8,345 nucleotides of DNA, from IMG/VR virus record IMGVR_UViG_2778261591_000009; one strand, written 5' to 3'. Every line of letters begins with the position of its first letter. The first letter of the stretch is position 1. The DNA is from a virus (Duplodnaviria; Heunggongvirae; Uroviricota; Caudoviricetes). The position numbers were made by a program, and so were the translations under genes. The notes under the pieces are model-generated. The model worked only from the letters and a program-made list of their open reading frames with translations, was not told where the DNA came from and made no database searches. Of this stretch, positions 1 to 5,655 are shown in pieces.

Positions 1-401
1 TCTTGTATTTTTGTTTCGATAGCGCCAGATCTTTTAATGTCTTTTTCAGCACGATAATATGCCTGATCTGGGTCATACTTAAGAACATTAGGAAAATAGA
101 ACTGCTTCGCACCATATGCATCATAAACAGCCATAGAATGGCCTTGCACAGTTACGAATTTAGCAATCTGTCCGTTATATACCGGATATCCAGCAGCGTT
201 AATGATGATTGGTTGCGAAACAGGAACGTGAGAGCCGTCTTCGTTCTCTACATAAACCGGAATCTGGTTTTCAGGATTTACCGGGTCCGTGTCAATTTTA
301 CCGATATAAATTTTGCCATTGGCAACCGCTTTAAAAGAACGCGCCATAGTGAAAAGTTGCGAAGGCATCGATACGATCACATTGGCTGTAATGTCTGTCA
401 T
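1..401 (-). CDS. Tailspike protein, N-terminal head-binding domain (start codon in window; gene continues beyond position 1)
   Basis: Minus-strand ORF starting at ATG 399-401 (GGAG about 9 nt upstream) and running off the window edge with no stop; it is absent from the supplied ORF track, presumably because it is open-ended. My translation is [121 protein letters not shown]... This matches the conserved N-terminal head-binding domain of P22 gp9-type tailspikes as I recall it, and the resemblance stops after KYDPDQ. Confidence 0.88.
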
Positions 402-533
402 TTAATTTGCTCCAGATACAATGAATCGCCGCAGCGTGGCTACGGTTGGTATTTGTTGCATACCGAAACGGTACGATTGTTGATTTGTACAGTAGGTTTT
501 ACGATGCCATTCCACCCATTTGGTGAGGCATTG

Positions 534-791
534 ATGATGTACAGCAAATACGATGAGGCGCAGTTCCACTTGAGGCTTACGCACGAGTTGCACGCCAAGA
601 TTAAACAGCGTGCAAAAATGAATAACAGGTCTATCAATTCCGAAATTGTGGCTACGATGGAAGAATCACTCTCCAAACCATCACCTGTAAGCGGGTATCG
701 TGATGAAGAAGAGAGGCTGGCCTCATTAATCTCGGAACGAGTAAAAGAAGTTGCGGCTGATATCCTTAGAAAAGAAAAAACCCGCGATTAA
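534..791 (+). CDS. mnt: Mnt-like ribbon-helix-helix repressor (Arc/MetJ fold), 85 aa, second orphan copy
   Basis: Same frame as track ORF 3..791 but starting at ATG 534 (GAGG at 525-528). Protein is MMYSKYDEAQFHLRLTHELHAKIKQRAKMNNRSINSEIVATMEESLSKPSPVSGYRDEEERLASLISERVKEVAADILRKEKTRD. It has the RHH signature (FxLRL beta strand, NxRSxNSEIV helix), and the LSKPSPVSGYR...ERLA tail closely resembles the P22 Mnt C-terminal region as I recall it. The upstream part of the track ORF (3..533) looks non-coding in this frame and is occupied on the other strand by the tailspike start. Stop TAA 789-791 lies in the loop of the terminator hairpin. Confidence 0.8.
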   Translation: MMYSKYDEAQFHLRLTHELHAKIKQRAKMNNRSINSEIVATMEESLSKPSPVSGYRDEEERLASLISERVKEVAADILRKEKTRD

Positions 792-799
792 GCGGGTTT
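778..799. terminator. Intrinsic terminator hairpin shared by convergent genes (strong for the minus-strand ant operon, weaker for plus-strand mnt-like gene)
   Basis: Stem aaacccgc (778-785) pairs with gcgggttt (792-799) around a 6-nt loop. On the minus strand the hairpin is followed by UUUCUUUUC and lies 6 nt after the stop of the 73-aa ORF (806). On the plus strand it is followed by a weaker U-containing tract (aguugguuaguu). Confidence 0.7.
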
Positions 800-805
800 A
801 GTTGG

Positions 806-1027
806 TTAGTTATCAAAAAGTCCGTACGTTTCTTCTTCTTCAGGTGTAAGGGGAAGAATCTCTACTCTATCTATAGATACCTTTTCAATGTACCCATGAG
901 GTCTACTTAAAATTAAAGCTCTCTCATGCCACAGAACTCCAAGAATGTGATACCTCCCAGCATCGCCTTTTACCCTGGCTCTTCCTTTGATTCTTGGCGG
1001 CATAATGCCATATTTTTTCTTTGCCAT
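806..1027 (-). CDS. Hypothetical small protein (73 aa), translationally coupled to the upstream antirepressor-like gene
   Basis: ATG 1025-1027 overlaps the TAA stop (1027-1029) of the upstream gene as TAATG on the minus strand; it is the last gene before the terminator. Protein MAKKKYGIMPPRIKGRARVKGDAGRYHILGVLWHERALILSRPHGYIEKVSIDRVEILPLTPEEEETYGLFDN has a lysine/arginine-rich N-terminus and an acidic C-terminal tail. I do not recognise the family. Confidence 0.55.
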   Translation of the reverse strand: MAKKKYGIMPPRIKGRARVKGDAGRYHILGVLWHERALILSRPHGYIEKVSIDRVEILPLTPEEEETYGLFDN

Positions 1028-1755
1028 TATGCAACATTACTCCCATGAATCAGGTGTTGTAGTGCTTTAACACCTTCCGCATTGTAGCGGAATACTTCCA
1101 CCTGTTTGCTGGAATGCGCAGATTTATCCAGGAAGAACTTACCGTACTGCTCAGTTTTGAGGTTGTTTGCGTTAGCAATGCGACCAATCTTGTTGGCCGT
1201 TACTCCAAGCTGCTCTGCAACCTCCCCTGCTGAGTAGTAATGCTCTTCTATTGCTGGAAGAGGTATTGCATTAAAACCAACGATCGGGTTGATTATGCTT
1301 GCTGCCGCAGTCTGCTTTGCTTCCGGCGCAAGATTTGGCATCAAATCGAACAGATTGGTAACAGCTTCAACCGTCATTTTCAATGTTCGCGCCTGGCGAT
1401 ACTCAACAAGTCCACTCGACGATTTACCGCTTTTAATGTGCGCTTCTTGCATACTTTCAAGTTGGTCTACAAGTGAGCGGCGAACAGCTTTAGATTCACG
1501 AGCAGCCACTCGAAGGGCTTGCTTAATTGACATAACAACTTTTTCAGAAGTTGTCTTGTTTGATTTTTGAACTACGAAAATTTCGTAGTGCTCACCTTCA
1601 AGTTCATCCTTAATGCGTGCAATAAAGTCGTTATTTCGGACTTCTTTTTCCCCGCACTGTCTACGAGCATGATTGACCATCTCTAACAGGTACTGGCTAT
1701 CAATGGTTTTATCCGTGACAACGGATCCGATGTTTGCTACATTCTTAAAAGTCAT
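1027..1755 (-). CDS. Antirepressor-like phage regulatory protein (242 aa), second gene of tandem ant pair
   Basis: Track ORF 1027..1842 trimmed to the ATG at 1753-1755, which is preceded by AAGGAA (plus-strand ttcctt 1762-1767); the longer N-terminal extension has no ribosome-binding site. It sits immediately downstream of the Bro-N antirepressor in the same operon. The C-terminal segment YSAGEVAEQLGVTANKIGRIANANNLKTEQYGKFF...VEVFRYNAEGVKAL looks like a helix-turn-helix region of the kind found in phage antirepressor C-terminal (KilAC/ORF6C-type) domains. The family assignment is from memory and position only. Confidence 0.6.
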   Translation of the reverse strand: MTFKNVANIGSVVTDKTIDSQYLLEMVNHARRQCGEKEVRNNDFIARIKDELEGEHYEIFVVQKSNKTTSEKVVMSIKQALRVAARESKAVRRSLVDQLESMQEAHIKSGKSSSGLVEYRQARTLKMTVEAVTNLFDLMPNLAPEAKQTAAASIINPIVGFNAIPLPAIEEHYYSAGEVAEQLGVTANKIGRIANANNLKTEQYGKFFLDKSAHSSKQVEVFRYNAEGVKALQHLIHGSNVA

Positions 1756-1823
1756 TAGGCATTCCTTATGTGGTAGTAAGGGTGTGACATAGGCCGCCAG
1801 CAGCACACTGGCGGTTTTCTTTT
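1750..1823 (+). ncRNA. Candidate sar-like antisense RNA (about 74 nt) opposite the start codon and ribosome-binding site of the second antirepressor gene, ending at an intrinsic terminator
   Basis: Plus-strand promoter-like elements lie inside the first codons of the minus-strand gene: GTGACA (1715-1720), a 14-bp gap, then extended -10 TGcTACATT (1735-1743). The predicted start is near 1750. A GC-rich hairpin (ccgccag 1794-1800, loop cagcaca, ctggcgg 1808-1814) is followed directly by UUUUCUUUU (1815-1823). On the minus strand the same hairpin is not followed by a U-tract, so it is oriented for a plus-strand transcript. Ends are approximate. Confidence 0.45.
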
Positions 1824-1842
1824 GCGCCGTCCTGTGCGCCAA

Positions 1843-2481
1843 TCAATGAATCCATTCCTCGCCGCGAAGTTTTGCCAGCATTGGCTGAGCGTTCTTTACG
1901 ACAAAATTGTTGGGATCAAGATTCTTCATTTCACGAAGAAGCGATTTCTTGGTTTCTTCTGACATGTAGCGAGTCTCATATGCAATATCGTAAATCTTTC
2001 CTGAAAGCTCAGAACCAATTTGCTTCATTCCAGGGTAGATGTGTTTGCACATTTGTTGACTCTTCTCCATCCACAATTGTAAGTAGCAGAGATTAACCAG
2101 TTCTTCGTCAGTAAACTGTTTTGCAATCGGTGAGCATTCTGCCTGCCGATCCAAAATATCCAGCACCCAGCGGCGGAACTCTTTGGCCTTGGGCGTAGAA
2201 GCAAACATCGCCACCAAGTGAGCGCCTCGGAGTGAGTAAACTCTGACCGATTTGTTACGTAAGCTATTGTTTATTCCGTTGACCTTCATATTGAGGGTCA
2301 ATGACATTGAGTCAGAAAATTCGTCAGCATTACGGGCATAAATTTGGCTGATGGCATCAGTTTTTTTATAGCCGAGAGCCTTAGCTAGTTCGGTGGAGGT
2401 AAACCAGATAGACCCGCCCTCTGTTACAGGGTTAAAAGTGAATCCTTGGAAGTTATAATCTGATTTTGCTACAATATTCAT
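1843..2481 (-). CDS. Bro-N domain antirepressor (Ant-like), 212 aa
   Basis: Track ORF 1843..2565 trimmed to the ATG at 2479-2481, preceded by AAGGAA at 7-nt spacing; upstream in-frame ATGs lack a ribosome-binding site and would overlap arc. The N-terminus MNIVAKSDYNFQGFTFNPVTEGGSIWFTSTELAKALGYKKTDAISQIYARNADEF...VRVYSLRGAHLVAMFASTPKAKEFRRWVLDIL matches the Bro-N pattern (F-F ... W-F ... LGY ... F-RW) that I recall from phage antirepressors. It is the first gene after arc, as ant is in P22 immI. Confidence 0.75.
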   Translation of the reverse strand: MNIVAKSDYNFQGFTFNPVTEGGSIWFTSTELAKALGYKKTDAISQIYARNADEFSDSMSLTLNMKVNGINNSLRNKSVRVYSLRGAHLVAMFASTPKAKEFRRWVLDILDRQAECSPIAKQFTDEELVNLCYLQLWMEKSQQMCKHIYPGMKQIGSELSGKIYDIAYETRYMSEETKKSLLREMKNLDPNNFVVKNAQPMLAKLRGEEWIH

Positions 2482-2556
2482 GTTAGTTTCCTTGAGTACG
2501 GTTACTGACATAGAGGCCCGGTTTGTGTTCGCGCACTTCCGGGCTTCACTATTTTT
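2482..2556 (+). ncRNA. Candidate sar-like antisense RNA (about 75-90 nt) across the arc-ant intercistronic region and the ant ribosome-binding site
   Basis: Two plus-strand promoter candidates lie inside the 5' end of the Bro-N ant gene: TTAAAA (2432-2437) with 16-bp spacer and TATAAT (2454-2459), and an extended -10 TGcTACAAT (2467-2475) with TTGGAA (2446-2451) 18 bp upstream. A hairpin (2513-2521 pairing with 2539-2547, including one G-U) is followed by UAUUUUU (2550-2556) abutting the arc stop codon. The position and size correspond to P22 sar RNA, which is established knowledge. Ends are approximate. Confidence 0.45.
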
Positions 2557-2731
2557 ACTGGGCATTAGCTCTTTCCTCTCTCAGGCTTTTAGCCAGTCGC
2601 TGCACAATCGCAGAGTTGATAGAAATTCCATCCATTTCAGCTACGCGTCTGATCTCCTCCTTCATTCGCGCTGGCAAACGAAGCTGGAAACTCTGACTTT
2701 TACGACCACTGTAAAGAACATCGCTCATCAT
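2555..2731 (-). CDS. arc: Arc-like ribbon-helix-helix repressor (58 aa)
   Basis: Track ORF 2555..2746 with the start moved to ATG 2729-2731, which has GGAG (plus-strand ctcc 2738-2741) 6 nt upstream; the track start at 2746 would abut the operator palindrome with no ribosome-binding site. Protein MMSDVLYSGRKSQSFQLRLPARMKEEIRRVAEMDGISINSAIVQRLAKSLREERANAQ aligns with P22 Arc as recalled (QFNLRWPREV...NGRSVNSEIYQRVMESFKKEGR). It is the first gene of the antirepressor operon and divergent from mnt. Confidence 0.8.
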   Translation of the reverse strand: MMSDVLYSGRKSQSFQLRLPARMKEEIRRVAEMDGISINSAIVQRLAKSLREERANAQ

Positions 2732-2742
2732 CAATATCTCCG

Positions 2743-2798
2743 TCATAATGACATCACCATGATGTCATGACACCATTATGATGCCATTGCTCATAATG
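2743..2798. repeat. Cluster of TCATAATG / CATTATGA repeats in the arc-mnt divergent control region
   Basis: TCATAATG occurs at 2743-2750 and 2791-2798, and its reverse complement CATTATGA at 2774-2781. Each contains a CATAAT -10-like hexamer, two on the plus strand and one on the minus strand, interleaved with the 9-bp palindrome arms. Confidence 0.55.
2748..2768. promoter_or_regulatory. Operator-like perfect inverted repeat ATGACATCA-cca-TGATGTCAT at the predicted start of ant-operon transcripts
   Basis: Two 9-bp arms (2748-2756 and 2760-2768) are exact reverse complements separated by 3 bp. The repeat lies between the candidate Pant -10 and the arc ribosome-binding site, where a repressor would block initiation; in P22 the Mnt operator overlaps the Pant start point. 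The flanks hold further related repeats: TCATAATG at 2743-2750 and 2791-2798, and the inverted copy CATTATGA at 2774-2781. Confidence 0.6.
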
Positions 2799-2802
2799 TC
2801 AA
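2775..2802 (-). promoter_or_regulatory. Candidate Pant-like sigma-70 promoter for the arc-ant operon (-35 TTGACA, 16-bp spacer, -10 CATAAT)
   Basis: On the minus strand there is a perfect TTGACA (plus coordinates 2797-2802), a 16-bp spacer, then CATAAT (2775-2780). The predicted start is near 2767-2769, inside the palindrome, about 36 nt upstream of the arc ATG. A divergent plus-strand candidate for mnt (ATGACA 2767-2772, 19-bp spacer, CATAAT 2792-2797) overlaps it, giving face-to-face overlapping promoters as in P22 immI. Confidence 0.5.
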
Positions 2803-2851
2803 TATGATGCTACTGTGTTTTTTATTGCTCATATGCCTTGCGAATAAGAAA

Positions 2852-3103
2852 ATGTCAGAAAAAGACGAATCAAATTTCATAGAAAGATTTACGGTTAGAA
2901 TGCCTGACGGCATGCGTAGTGCTATTGCGGAAAGGGCTAAACGAAACGGTCGATCTATGAACTCAGAGATAGTTCAAATTCTTGAGGATGCGTTATCATC
3001 TGACGTCTCATCAGTAGACAAATCATTAGATCTTAAACAAATAAAATCTTTACTTGATAAAATTTCCAACGAGTTACTGGATAGAATCCCAAAAGACACA
3101 TAA
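2852..3103 (+). CDS. mnt: Mnt-like ribbon-helix-helix repressor, 83 aa (positional mnt)
   Basis: Track ORF 2804..3103 trimmed to the ATG at 2852-2854; the 16-aa upstream extension MMLLCFLLLICLANKK is hydrophobic and implausible for a repressor. Protein MSEKDESNFIERFTVRMPDGMRSAIAERAKRNGRSMNSEIVQILEDALSSDVSSVDKSLDLKQIKSLLDKISNELLDRIPKDT. The N-terminal half matches the Mnt/Arc RHH motif (P22 Mnt ...FRMPMEVREKLKFRAEANGRSMNSELLQIVQDALS as recalled), and the C-terminal half is heptad-like, consistent with a coiled-coil oligomerisation tail. It is transcribed divergently from arc, as mnt is in P22. The region is AT-rich. Confidence 0.8.
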   Translation: MSEKDESNFIERFTVRMPDGMRSAIAERAKRNGRSMNSEIVQILEDALSSDVSSVDKSLDLKQIKSLLDKISNELLDRIPKDT

Positions 3104-3153
3104 CAAAACATTATCATCCGGTGTTCTGCTCAAAACTAAGGAGTGGCTACTCA

Positions 3154-3792
3154 ATGAAAAAAATAGATATATATAGCGATACATCAGCCTATGTCATAGG
3201 CTCATTGGGTTTTTTAATTTTTTTTGTTTGGCAGTACCAGTCACTATCTCCAGGATGGCGATTTTTGGGGATGTCTTTGATATCACTTGGTGCAGGAATA
3301 GCAACGCAGGTGTTGATGTATCTCTTTAATGGATGGCTCTCAAAAAGAGTTGAGAAAAAAAGAGCTACTTCAATATGTAGAAGCCTAGCTATTCCAGAAG
3401 ACTCTACAGATCAGGATGATATTGCAAAATGTTGGCGGTATATGATTGCAAGATACTCAAATGAGTTACTGGCAAACAGACTGTCCGACTTAATCGGGAT
3501 CGTAGTTACCTCTGTTGGAACAATCATCAGTATAGGGATATCAATTTGGTATGTCGGGATGATTGTCTATTTTGTTTGGAATAGAGACTTCAATGAACCT
3601 TCCCTTCTTTTTATACCTTTATTTTTCAGGGTATTAGCATTCATATGTGAGTTATTGCTCTCTTTTTTCTGCAATGTTTTGTTCAACAGATACCCAGGTG
3701 AAGCAAGAAAGTTTAATAAAAACTATGATGAGTTAAGGAGAACAGATCCTTTTCTATCAAGCAAAGAGTTCCGCGATTCCATTCGCAATTAA
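3154..3792 (+). CDS. Polytopic inner-membrane protein (212 aa) at the sieA position; candidate superinfection-exclusion protein
   Basis: Track ORF 3121..3792 trimmed to ATG 3154-3156, with AAGGAG at 3138-3143. The protein has at least four hydrophobic helices (AYVIGSLGFLIFFVWQY, FLGMSLISLGAGIATQVLMYLF, LIGIVVTSVGTIISIGISIWYVGMIVYFVW, LLFIPLFFRVLAFICELLLSFFCNVLF). The gene is very AT-rich (about one-third GC in sampled stretches against about 45-50% in the late genes). It lies between the ejection gene gp16 and mnt on the mnt strand, which is the slot P22 uses for sieA. The functional call is positional; I cannot confirm sequence similarity to SieA from memory. Confidence 0.7.
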   Translation: MKKIDIYSDTSAYVIGSLGFLIFFVWQYQSLSPGWRFLGMSLISLGAGIATQVLMYLFNGWLSKRVEKKRATSICRSLAIPEDSTDQDDIAKCWRYMIARYSNELLANRLSDLIGIVVTSVGTIISIGISIWYVGMIVYFVWNRDFNEPSLLFIPLFFRVLAFICELLLSFFCNVLFNRYPGEARKFNKNYDELRRTDPFLSSKEFRDSIRN

Positions 3793-3813: not shown

Positions 3814-5655
3814 TTAGCGATCAGTTGCATCATTGGCAAGTATTGGTCTGATGGCATTTGCGGCGTTATTCAGCGCTCTTTCATAGGCTGGTGTTCCTGC
3901 TTTGGTGTTTGCCAAACGTAAGAGAGCATTCCTTGCTGCTTTAGACTCATACAAACGCATCATTGCACCAAAGCCAGCCTCAAGCCCCATTGATACGCCA
4001 AGAGTCGCAGTTGCGCCAATCGTCCTTATCCGGTTGGCTTGCGATTGCCCCGTCTGAGTTACTACATTTGCGGTGTCTGACCTTGCTGTTTGCTGTAGAA
4101 CTTCATGAAGAGAATCAAGCTCTTTCATGTGCTTTCCAGAAAAAATAGTGTTGTAAATTTCACCACCTGACTGAGATTTCAGCTTATTAACTTCAGTGAT
4201 GAACTTGGCTGGAGAATCACCGGCCTTTTCCGCTATTTTGCTGACGTAAGCTGCACGCATAGCATCTTTCCCTTTATCATCCAATGCGCTCCAGATTCGT
4301 TTCACGTCAGATGGTTTTCTGCTTAATACAACGGTATTTATAAGTTCAGGACTGGCTTCACTGCTTGCCTTGTTGAGCTTGTTAGCAATGTTTTTATTAA
4401 GCACCTTATTATAAACGTTTGCATAATCTGAATTTGCTTTAAGGTATTTTGCTGCGTCTGATGCACCGAGGTTTTTAGCAACTGCGTTACGAAGGTCTTT
4501 TGACATTGCATTCTCTACCATATTGGTAGCTGCTTTTGCCTGGTTGGGGAAGACCATAGAATCTCCCTGAACATTAGATCTAAATGCTGTTCTGTGCTGA
4601 CGCAAGAGATCAAACGTAACATCCAAATCAGTTGCAGGGTTTGCTAATTCTTCACGTAGGTTACGCAAGGATGTAAGCAGGCTTTGATTGGCTGAAGTCC
4701 CAAGCCGTTCCTGTCTTGCGATCGCTGTATTCAGAGCATTCATGGTATTTGTGGTATCAACTGCGGCATTACCCATTTTATTGGTGACGTCATTGATAAC
4801 AGCGCCAGCAGCATCCTTCCGCCCCCTTAACGTGGTGGTCAGAGATTTCACCACATCATCAGGGTTGTACTCACCAAAACGGTCAAAATAATTGCTTACC
4901 AGCTTACTACGCGTTGCATATTGCTCCGCTCGCTTTGAGCCTGTCCCGAGCAAAGCCCCCTCGGCATCCTGAGTAAGGCCGCGAGTGAAAGCATTTTTCG
5001 GCGGGATAACATCAGATGTCATTGGTGTCACGCCCATCGATTCTGAAGTGGCAATTTTCTTCGCCACTTCTGGCGCAATATCACCTTTTATAGCCGTTAT
5101 TCCACGCCCTATTCCCTTTGCTGCTGCGGAAAGAACACCCTGAGCGGCAAGGTTAACTCCGGCATTTTTAGCTGCATTTTGTGCGAAATCGCCTTTCTGA
5201 TTTGCGGCCTCTGCCAGTGATCCAATAGCCATGCTTCCTGCCGTTCCAATTCCTGGAACTAAATACCCGCCAATTGTTTCTCCAGCTTGAGCGTAGGGGT
5301 CTGTCGGTCTGTCTACTGGACGATAAACATCATCCAAAACTTTTGGCCCACCAAGCCCCTGACTGATTGCATTAATCAGACTTGCGCCACCCTGCAATAC
5401 GTCAAATGGTATGTTTACCAGACCACGACCAGCCTGTTCTGCAATTTGCCCTGCACTTTGACCACCAGTGAGCCAATCGCCAGCTTGTTGCATCAATGAT
5501 GGTTCTTCCCGTGTTGGTGCATTATTGGCCTGATTAACTGTTTGTTGCTGAACAGCCTGACCAGCAAAATACTCATCAATGGCGGTGCCAATATCTTCGG
5601 TGCTCGTACCATCAGGAAAGGTAAATGTCTTACCGTTTGCAGTTACTTTCATCAT
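3814..5655 (-). CDS. Ejection (DNA-transfer) protein, P22 gp16-like, about 613 aa
   Basis: Long minus-strand ORF with late-gene composition. Its tandem ATGs at 5653-5655 and 5650-5652 overlap the TGA stop of the upstream gene (ATGA-type coupling). It is third in a run of 224, 490 and 613 aa that matches the size and order of P22 gp7 (229), gp20 (471) and gp16 (609) immediately upstream of sieA/mnt. The sequence is Gly/Ala/Gln-rich with no obvious enzymatic motif. The assignment rests on synteny and size. Confidence 0.8.

Follow-up and report, generated by a model that had tools for sequence, protein, structure and literature searches.

The window analyzed here, an 8,345-nt stretch of DNA from a member of Caudoviricetes (IMG/VR record IMGVR_UViG_2778261591_000009), carries the immI/accessory region of a P22-like (Lederbergvirus) Escherichia coli prophage, which is reversed relative to the usual P22 map. 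The gene at issue, ORF73, codes for a protein of 73 amino acid residues (MAKKKYGIMPPRIKGRARVKGDAGRYHILGVLWHERALILSRPHGYIEKVSIDRVEILPLTPEEEETYGLFDN) and occupies the last position in an arc-ant1-ant2-ORF73 operon. The genes and signals of this region are as follows.

Start at ~402, minus strand: N-terminus of the tailspike protein
534-791, plus strand: second ribbon-helix-helix gene of the Mnt/Arc family (85 aa), convergent with ORF73
778-799, minus strand: intrinsic terminator that ends the arc-ant1-ant2-ORF73 transcript, shared head-to-head with the convergent mnt-like gene
806-1027, minus strand: ORF73 (73 aa, phrog_4977), with an ATG start, the last cistron
1025-1029, minus strand: TAATG stop/start overlap of ant2 and ORF73, kept in 42/42 related loci
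1040-1044, minus strand: GGGAG, a Shine-Dalgarno-like element 12 nt before the ORF73 ATG, inside the last ant2 codons
1027-1755, minus strand: ant2, the second antirepressor gene (phrog_1726, E = 5.9e-100)
1843-2481, minus strand: ant1, an antirepressor gene with Bro-N and P22_AR_C domains
2555-2746, minus strand: arc-like ribbon-helix-helix gene, the first cistron of the operon (longest open reading frame; the real start may be a later ATG)
2775-2802, minus strand: Pant-like promoter upstream of arc (TTGACA-16-CATAAT, 11/12 matches)
~2852-3103, plus strand: canonical mnt-like gene adjoining Pant
3121-3792, plus strand: sieA
Beyond sieA, minus strand: genes 16, 20, 7, and 14

Over this stretch, the closest deposited phage is Escherichia phage JEP4, in which the same 73-aa gene is annotated as hypothetical (JEP4_18) and encodes a protein identical to that of the window. 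A 100%-identical copy of positions 700-1150 is present in E. coli O111:H- strain 110512, with the gene product listed as the RefSeq hypothetical protein WP_001085227.1. The prophage region of that strain (L064) is decayed, with IS1203 copies interrupting ant1 and the gene 16 homolog (10396-11609 and 14787-16000); ORF73, ant2, and the mnt-like gene are still intact there, and the region is otherwise identical.

The N-terminal part of Ant2 resembles Ant1 of phages P1 and P7 (63% over residues 15-107), and no Pfam match was found for Ant2. The convergent mnt-like gene at 534-791, which has a good GAGG sequence 5 nt before its ATG at position 534, is outside the ORF73 transcript and is an optional neighbor: Klebsiella phage phiKp_30 carries it without ORF73, and some IMG/VR loci (L034 type) carry ORF73 without it. 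A type II toxin-antitoxin pair formed by ORF73 and this gene was considered and rejected, since the two genes are convergent and each occurs without the other (phiKp_30; L034 and similar loci).

Several promoter-like sites were also seen on the plus strand of the operon. One of them, GTGACA-17-TACATT with a TG element (1715-1743), is followed by a 10-bp G+C-rich hairpin with a T-run at 1791-1817 of the same strand, the fold z-score of which is only -2.1. The 1715-1825 segment, which takes in the ant1-ant2 spacer and the first part of ant2, would yield an antisense RNA of ~70 to 80 nt over the start of ant2, arranged as sar is in P22; a scan of positions 400-3200 against Rfam gave no match to sar-like or other RNAs. 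Two overlapping sites, TTAAAA-16-TATAAT (10/12 matches) and TTGGAA-18-TACAAT, are found inside the 5' end of ant1 (2432-2475), pointing toward arc, a position that corresponds to that of Psar in P22.

Expression signals at the ant2-ORF73 junction

On the minus strand, the junction of the two genes reads ...CAT GGG AGT AAT GTT GCA TAA TGG CAA..., and the TAA of ant2 (1029-1027) and the ATG of ORF73 (1027-1025) share one base, giving TAATG. A first-pass annotation of this DNA, made from the sequence alone, had described a TAATG stop-start overlap with the upstream gene and had placed ORF73 as the last cistron before a strong terminator. Both descriptions hold: the overlap is confirmed at 1029-1025, and the terminator is found at 799-778, beginning eight bases past the ORF73 stop codon. 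It is formed by an 8-bp stem, in which five of the pairs are G-C, and the UUUUUU run after it, and has a free energy of -12.4 kcal/mol (z = -4.5 compared with shuffled sequences, with 0 of 200 shuffles folding as well).

The same arrangement recurs in the 42 related IMG/VR loci described below. All of them retain both TAATG and GGGAG and have an intrinsic terminator directly 3' of ORF73, which comes in two unrelated versions according to what lies downstream. No promoter-like site was detected by a consensus scan of the minus strand between positions 1027 and 2775. With these sequence signals, ORF73 is positioned for translation by termination-reinitiation at TAATG and/or from the GGGAG element within the end of ant2. 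Being coupled into the Pant operon, it would be made whenever this operon is transcribed.

The last ant2 codons of phiKp_30, a phage that has no ORF73, encode the same HGSNVA sequence, and GGGAG is missing there because this sequence is spelled with the codons GGC TCA AAT GTG GCG. The synonymous codons thus make up a ribosome-binding site only where ORF73 is present, which is minor but independent evidence for translation of ORF73.

A short palindrome (TGGCATTATGCCA-like) at 995-1010 of the plus strand, within the Y-G-I-M-P codons of ORF73, was picked out as a terminator-like element of the antisense strand. It recurs in two loci of relatives, L075 (5017-5031) and L079 (5017-5034), the proteins being only ~40% identical, and is probably a by-product of coding for YGIMPP.

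ORF73 is a protein-coding gene under purifying selection

A scan of IMG/VR identified 42 loci that encode the ORF73 protein at 97 to 100% identity, with the reading frame intact in every one of them. Together with the window and JEP4, these loci comprise 17 distinct nucleotide alleles, in which 22 of the 219 coding bases are variable; 14 of the 22 variable sites fall into codon position 3 (binomial P = 0.0035). The substitutions include 17 synonymous and 6 mostly conservative nonsynonymous ones (K5R, P10S, R18M, A37S, V50I, and V55I), 3 of the latter being singletons. The Nei-Gojobori pN/pS ratio is 0.080 in the ORF73 frame, the lowest of the six frames, compared with 0.21 to 3.9 in the other five. 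These substitution patterns establish ORF73 as a genuine coding gene subject to purifying selection, and we infer its translation from this conservation. The first-pass annotation had proposed conservation and dN/dS in related prophages as a check on the gene and had named premature stops in close relatives as a finding that would speak against it; the allele set, along with the distant relatives described below, bears out the former, and no such stops occur in any of the 42 loci.

The view that ORF73 is an untranslated frame, due to chance or left over from a decaying gene, is hardly tenable in light of these data. It could draw on the database variants P0003, P0004, P0006, and P0008, which have either frameshifts within the first 20 codons (scrambled N-termini) or truncations, and on a single E. 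coli strain (3CM) in which most of ORF73 is deleted. However, these four variants are clusters of only 1 or 2 sequences each, and three of them (P0003, P0004, and P0006) regain the ORF73 frame before residue 20. A nonfunctional frame is also at odds with the low pN/pS ratio and the 42 intact loci, with the invariant P10 and W33 residues shared by relatives that have only 31 to 49% protein identity, and with the confident fold predicted from the family alignment. Apart from the P0003, P0004, and P0006 variants, the N-terminal arm is conserved across the family. There is an A6 run in codons 3 to 5 of ORF73 (AAG AAA AAA TAT; the site is placed at 1015-1004 of the minus strand, codons 5 to 8). The scrambling in these three variants could reflect paired sequencing errors at homopolymers or tolerated changes, errors at the A6 run being only a guess.

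ORF73 is an optional cassette behind the second antirepressor gene

In all 42 E. coli phage loci, ORF73 is found directly behind ant2, whose alleles are 86 to 100% identical, compared with 97 to 100% for ORF73; variation is much greater in ant1, in mnt, and in the surrounding virion genes. Outside these loci, the two genes come apart. Phage phiKp_30 encodes an Ant2 that is 98.8% identical and shares the terminator and the convergent mnt-like gene with the window but lacks ORF73, so that only 20 nt separate the ant2 stop codon from the terminator stem. Other ant2 homologs (in Stx phages, Klebsiella KP12, and E. coli O39) precede unrelated genes. In E. coli strain 3CM, a deletion of ~440 bp (L070 positions 1330-1530 compared with window positions 560-998) extends from ORF73 codon 11 through the terminator to the 5' part of the mnt-like gene and leaves ant2 adjoining the tailspike gene. 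In P22 itself, ant (15091-15993) is followed by the terminator (16012-16035) and then by gene 9, in agreement with the statement of the first-pass annotation that nothing lies between ant and the terminator in this phage. Its suggestion that ORF73 is an acquired accessory gene is likewise supported, as regards acquired or optional status, by the absence of ORF73 from phiKp_30 and P22. In P22-like E. coli prophages, ORF73 is thus shown to be a cassette that may be present or absent in the interval from the second antirepressor gene to the terminator of the operon.

The cassette is not confined to P22-like genomes. In L026, L032, L044, and similar IMG/VR loci, an mnt/arc-ant1-ant2-ORF73 block, which in the L026-type loci ends in a different terminator (CCCAGC-TTCG-GCTGGG), is located between tape-measure/lytic-transglycosylase-like and baseplate-like genes, that is, inside a non-P22-like (myovirus-type) backbone, so this module moves between phage types.

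The main rival to the autonomous role that we prefer (see below) builds on this linkage and holds that ORF73 is a dedicated partner of Ant2 (a cofactor, chaperone, specificity factor, or damper), kept at a fixed ratio by translational coupling. The constant position immediately 3' of ant2 with TAATG in 42/42 loci, the range of 97 to 100% identity in ORF73 while the ant2 alleles span 86 to 100%, the joint travel of the ant2-ORF73 pair into a myovirus-like backbone, and a Serratia relative that adjoins Ash-like and ORF6N (KilA-N-type) genes would all fit such a partnership. Overlapping stop and start codons, however, are common in compact phage genomes whatever the function, and phiKp_30 retains a nearly identical Ant2 without ORF73, while the ant2 homologs of Stx phages and others precede unrelated genes. 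In addition, most of the distant relatives have no antirepressor nearby and no neighbor in common. On balance, a dedicated Ant2 partner appears unlikely.

The phrog_4977 family, its predicted fold, and candidate roles

ORF73 was called unrecognized in the first-pass annotation. That label has to be withdrawn: besides being annotated as hypothetical in JEP4 and in RefSeq E. coli (WP_001085227.1), ORF73 is a full-length member of phrog_4977, with residues 1 to 73 aligned to positions 1 to 73 of the profile (E = 5.5e-54). Among the gathered relatives, 72 of 73 match phrog_4977 and no other PHROG; the family carries no assigned function, and every name given to a retrieved relative is "hypothetical" or "uncharacterized." The close family is small: among 5.8 billion proteins, it is represented by only eight clusters at the 90% identity level, none of them below 80% identity. 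ORF73 is found in a single deposited phage (JEP4) and in ~50 of 5,426 complete E. coli genomes (about 1%), and no relative was confirmed among the GTDB representatives (one genome per species).

More distant relatives, at 35 to 49% identity, were recovered by an exhaustive HMMER search, and a profile built from these retrieved 89 protein clusters, which outside the E. coli/Salmonella clade are 31 to 49% identical and share the family motif. The named sources are Serratia, Klebsiella, Citrobacter, Salmonella, Vibrio, Aeromonas, Pseudomonas, Stutzerimonas, and Burkholderia. The motif can be written as M-x-[RK]-K-x-K-Y-G-x-M-P-P ... A-x-V-K-G-D-A-G-x-Y-x-V-W-G-x-D-W ... V-L-x-D-R-x-G-x-E-W-x-x-I-x-K-V, followed by a short acidic tail, with P10 and W33 invariant across the alignment. 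In the enterobacterial subfamily, the tail is conserved as well (FVEPTEEE-x-ELL), and the LPLTPEEEETYGLF sequence of the window aligns with it. These searches show phrog_4977 to be a small uncharacterized family on mobile elements of gamma- and betaproteobacteria.

Comparisons with curated collections gave no functional assignment. There were no Pfam families at E values up to 0.1 for ORF73 and eight relatives, no NCBIfam matches for ORF73 and its relatives, no PADLOC defense-protein profiles at E values up to 0.1 for ORF73 and five relatives, and nothing in the PDB sequence search with the family profile at E values up to 10. The Pfam and NCBIfam sets include ArdA, KlcA, and some Acr families, none of which was matched. 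A literature search for WP_001085227.1, phrog_4977, and JEP4 found no study of this gene.

Some relatives contain extra domains, namely P0011 and P0017 (153 to 164 aa), P0014 (192 aa), P0012, P0013, P0047, and P0060. One group shares a C-terminal domain of ~90 aa (YTVWGG...RIIVATKTKK...); in a second group, the additional domain is N-terminal and ~75 aa long. No Pfam match was found for the extra domains of P0011, P0014, and P0017, and they give no functional clue.

The genomic neighborhoods of the distant relatives are diverse. In podovirus-like prophages of the Klebsiella and Serratia type, the relative is found just after large ejection/internal-protein genes and a gene for a small membrane protein or lipoprotein and precedes lysis or tailspike genes, which is the same variable slot as that of P22 immI/sieA; in one Serratia genome, it precedes the Ash-like and ORF6N genes mentioned above. 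In Stutzerimonas (L053/L054, positions 4034-4798), the relative directly follows a gene for an SprT-like metalloprotease with a HEMAH motif and lies near two DNA methyltransferase genes, a neighborhood reminiscent of the ArdC-type anti-restriction regions of conjugative elements. The Pseudomonas, Burkholderia, and Vibrio relatives are part of long same-strand arrays of small unannotated genes, whose other members include genes for an IS605-type transposase (Pseudomonas and Vibrio), GmrSD_N (Burkholderia and Pseudomonas), Fic (Burkholderia), and HigB and DUF2786 (Vibrio). In Salmonella, the relative is located on a plasmid-like contig between genes for TIR-domain proteins and those for RelB/YafQ, Hha, and ProQ; a search of a plasmid collection with this protein returned only two weak Pseudomonas matches. 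The enterobacterial-type profile had 15 matches in viral contigs, and the Pseudomonas-type profile had none among 2.9 million such contigs.

Across 10 or more contexts, no shared neighbor was found, nor was there one in an all-against-all BLAST comparison of the proteins flanking eight distant relatives or in a tblastn search of 15 further viral loci with the immI proteins of the window. The relatives occupy accessory slots in podovirus-like prophages or belong to arrays of small genes that are ICE- or plasmid-like. Since no neighbor is conserved and the elements are varied, the family is generic mobile-element cargo rather than a component of antirepression.

The slot occupied in the Klebsiella- and Serratia-type prophages brings up a different explanation, a late or virion-related role that would follow from the position of ORF73 in the late-transcribed interval separating the ejection-protein genes from the tailspike gene. 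The relatives in these prophages are co-oriented with the ejection/internal-protein genes that they follow and are succeeded by tailspike or lysis genes, with an intrinsic terminator 3' of the relative in one such contig, and ORF73 in the window has the same overall slot and orientation. Accessory genes such as sieA and mnt, however, are typically found in this slot, and the non-phage-like arrays around the Pseudomonas, Stutzerimonas, Burkholderia, and Vibrio relatives, as well as the lack of viral-contig matches to the Pseudomonas-type profile, do not fit a virion function. Furthermore, ORF73 is dispensable in phiKp_30, a phage isolated from sewage. A late role of this kind is improbable.

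With a 73-sequence alignment as input, all five AlphaFold2 models of ORF73 agree (pLDDT of 87 to 90.5, pTM of 0.72); in the run without an alignment, one model reached a pLDDT of 73 and the other four stayed at 46 to 55. The predicted strands span residues 16 to 19, 26 to 32, 37 to 41, 47 to 51, and 55 to 58, with a 3-10 turn before the last strand and a helix at residues 62 to 67. In the models, the five antiparallel strands form a closed barrel of SH3 topology, as in SH3-like small beta-barrels. ORF73 is accordingly predicted to be an SH3-like five-stranded barrel that carries the conserved KYGxMPP arm at its N-terminus and has a short helix, both acidic and amphipathic, in its C-terminal part. 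The arm is modeled with moderate confidence (mean pLDDT of 81 over residues 1 to 10), which fits its sequence conservation and suggests that it is not a floppy basic tail.

Residues 1 to 58 of ORF73 have a net charge of +8 and the last 15 residues one of -5, with a whole-protein pI of 9.4, matching the earlier description of a Lys/Arg-rich N-terminus and an acidic C-terminal tail. Among 61 short members of the family, the core is positive in 58 and the tail acidic in 57, with mean charges of +3.4 and -2.9, respectively. The predicted fold is compatible with binding of nucleic acids or of peptides and does not favor one over the other, and an SH3-like barrel with a basic core would likewise suit either of the two roles, nucleic acid binding or host targeting, that had been floated in the first-pass annotation.

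A precedent for an SH3-like protein acting as an antirepressor is offered by CarS of Myxococcus xanthus, which has an SH3 topology and mimics operator DNA (PMC2926617). Given this precedent, the predicted topology of ORF73, its acidic C-terminal helix, and its location in an antirepressor operon, ORF73 could be imagined as a third small antirepressor or regulator-binding protein that sequesters a repressor of the C2, Mnt, or Arc class in a CarS-like manner. We consider this to have a low probability: ORF73 is net basic (core charge of +8, pI of 9.4) and not an acidic DNA mimic, and its relatives occur in elements that have no recognizable repressor/antirepressor module.

In the reading that we prefer, ORF73 would be an autonomous stoichiometric binding protein, whose barrel and arm would engage a protein or nucleic acid of the host or of a competitor. 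It would serve an accessory function of the host-takeover or anti-defense type, expressed when the element enters or exits the cell, and would not be an obligate subunit of an antirepressor. This reading is preferred mainly because the family has no fixed partner, sits in varied accessory slots, and can be lost without touching Ant2. By analogy with the immI region of P22, Pant should be active at an early stage of infection and on any loss of Mnt control, and ORF73 would then be made with Arc and Ant. Late transcription may reach ORF73 as well, since the operon runs in the same direction as the late genes, which must be read through to the tailspike gene.

Such an autonomous accessory protein, aimed at a host or competitor macromolecule, is a possible rather than a probable explanation. 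No specific homology and no neighbor conserved in the wider family supports any particular target, and ORF73 matches no PADLOC defense protein; a mean core charge of only about +3 in the wider family is weak for a dedicated nucleic acid binder. Within the E. coli phages, moreover, ORF73 is never found apart from ant2 and is always coupled to it (42/42), which fits a partnership too. More speculative, and rather doubtful, is the wider proposal that this family of SH3-like proteins of ~65 to 75 aa with the KYGxMPP arm and the acidic helix represents a new kind of host-takeover or anti-defense effector, interchangeable among the podovirus and myovirus prophages, ICEs, and plasmids that carry it, and would have been captured into the antirepressor operon of E. 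coli P22-like phages and be made at entry and induction.

If the proposed role is true, many mobile elements would deploy a compact protein family of this type on entering or leaving the cell. ORF73 would be an easy candidate for anti-defense or host-takeover screens: it is small and soluble-looking, phiKp_30 is a natural isolate that lacks it, and JEP4 is an isolated phage that has it. As things stand, ORF73 is one more conserved hypothetical phage gene that holds no surprise for a phage specialist; its family is on record as one of hypothetical proteins, and the evidence presented here does not assign it a function. What has been gained is a confirmed gene call, a confident predicted fold, a definition of the family beyond E. 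coli, and evidence that this family is not tied to antirepressors outside the E. coli clade.

Among the known systems, ORF73 resembles morons in being present or absent between otherwise nearly identical neighbors (as in phiKp_30 and P22, which do not have it), in being flanked by a terminator (42/42 loci), and in lying within the known variable region that extends from the ejection genes to the tailspike gene, where P22-like phages carry morons at the immI/sieA slot. However, the consensus scan detected no promoter of its own, ORF73 riding on the Pant operon by coupling, and its composition is not distinct (GC content of 0.41 to 0.42, compared with 0.39 to 0.49 in the flanks). Another comparison is with Icd of P1 and P7, also a 73-aa open reading frame in an immI operon that is translationally coupled to ant1/ant2 and overlaps an antirepressor gene, and the antirepressor of that operon is the one related in its N-terminal part to Ant2 (63%, residues 15-107); Icd, however, is encoded upstream of ant/ant1, the expression of which depends on Icd translation, and ORF73 is encoded downstream of ant2. 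Homology with Icd was considered and rejected, as alignment of the family profile with P7 Icd by hhalign gave a probability of 0.08% (E = 0.64). The likeness to CarS (PMC2926617) is that of a small SH3-like protein, predicted in the case of ORF73, in an antirepression setting; the acidic surface with which CarS mimics operator DNA has no counterpart in ORF73, with its core charge of +8 and pI of 9.4. Finally, Tudor domains, the C-terminal domain of retroviral integrases, the KOW domains of NusG/Spt5, and SH3 domains have only 7 to 17% identity to ORF73 and give no profile match; the resemblance to them is at the level of the predicted fold and says little about function, and the ORF73 family is distinguished from all of them by its own KYGxMPP arm and acidic C-terminal helix.
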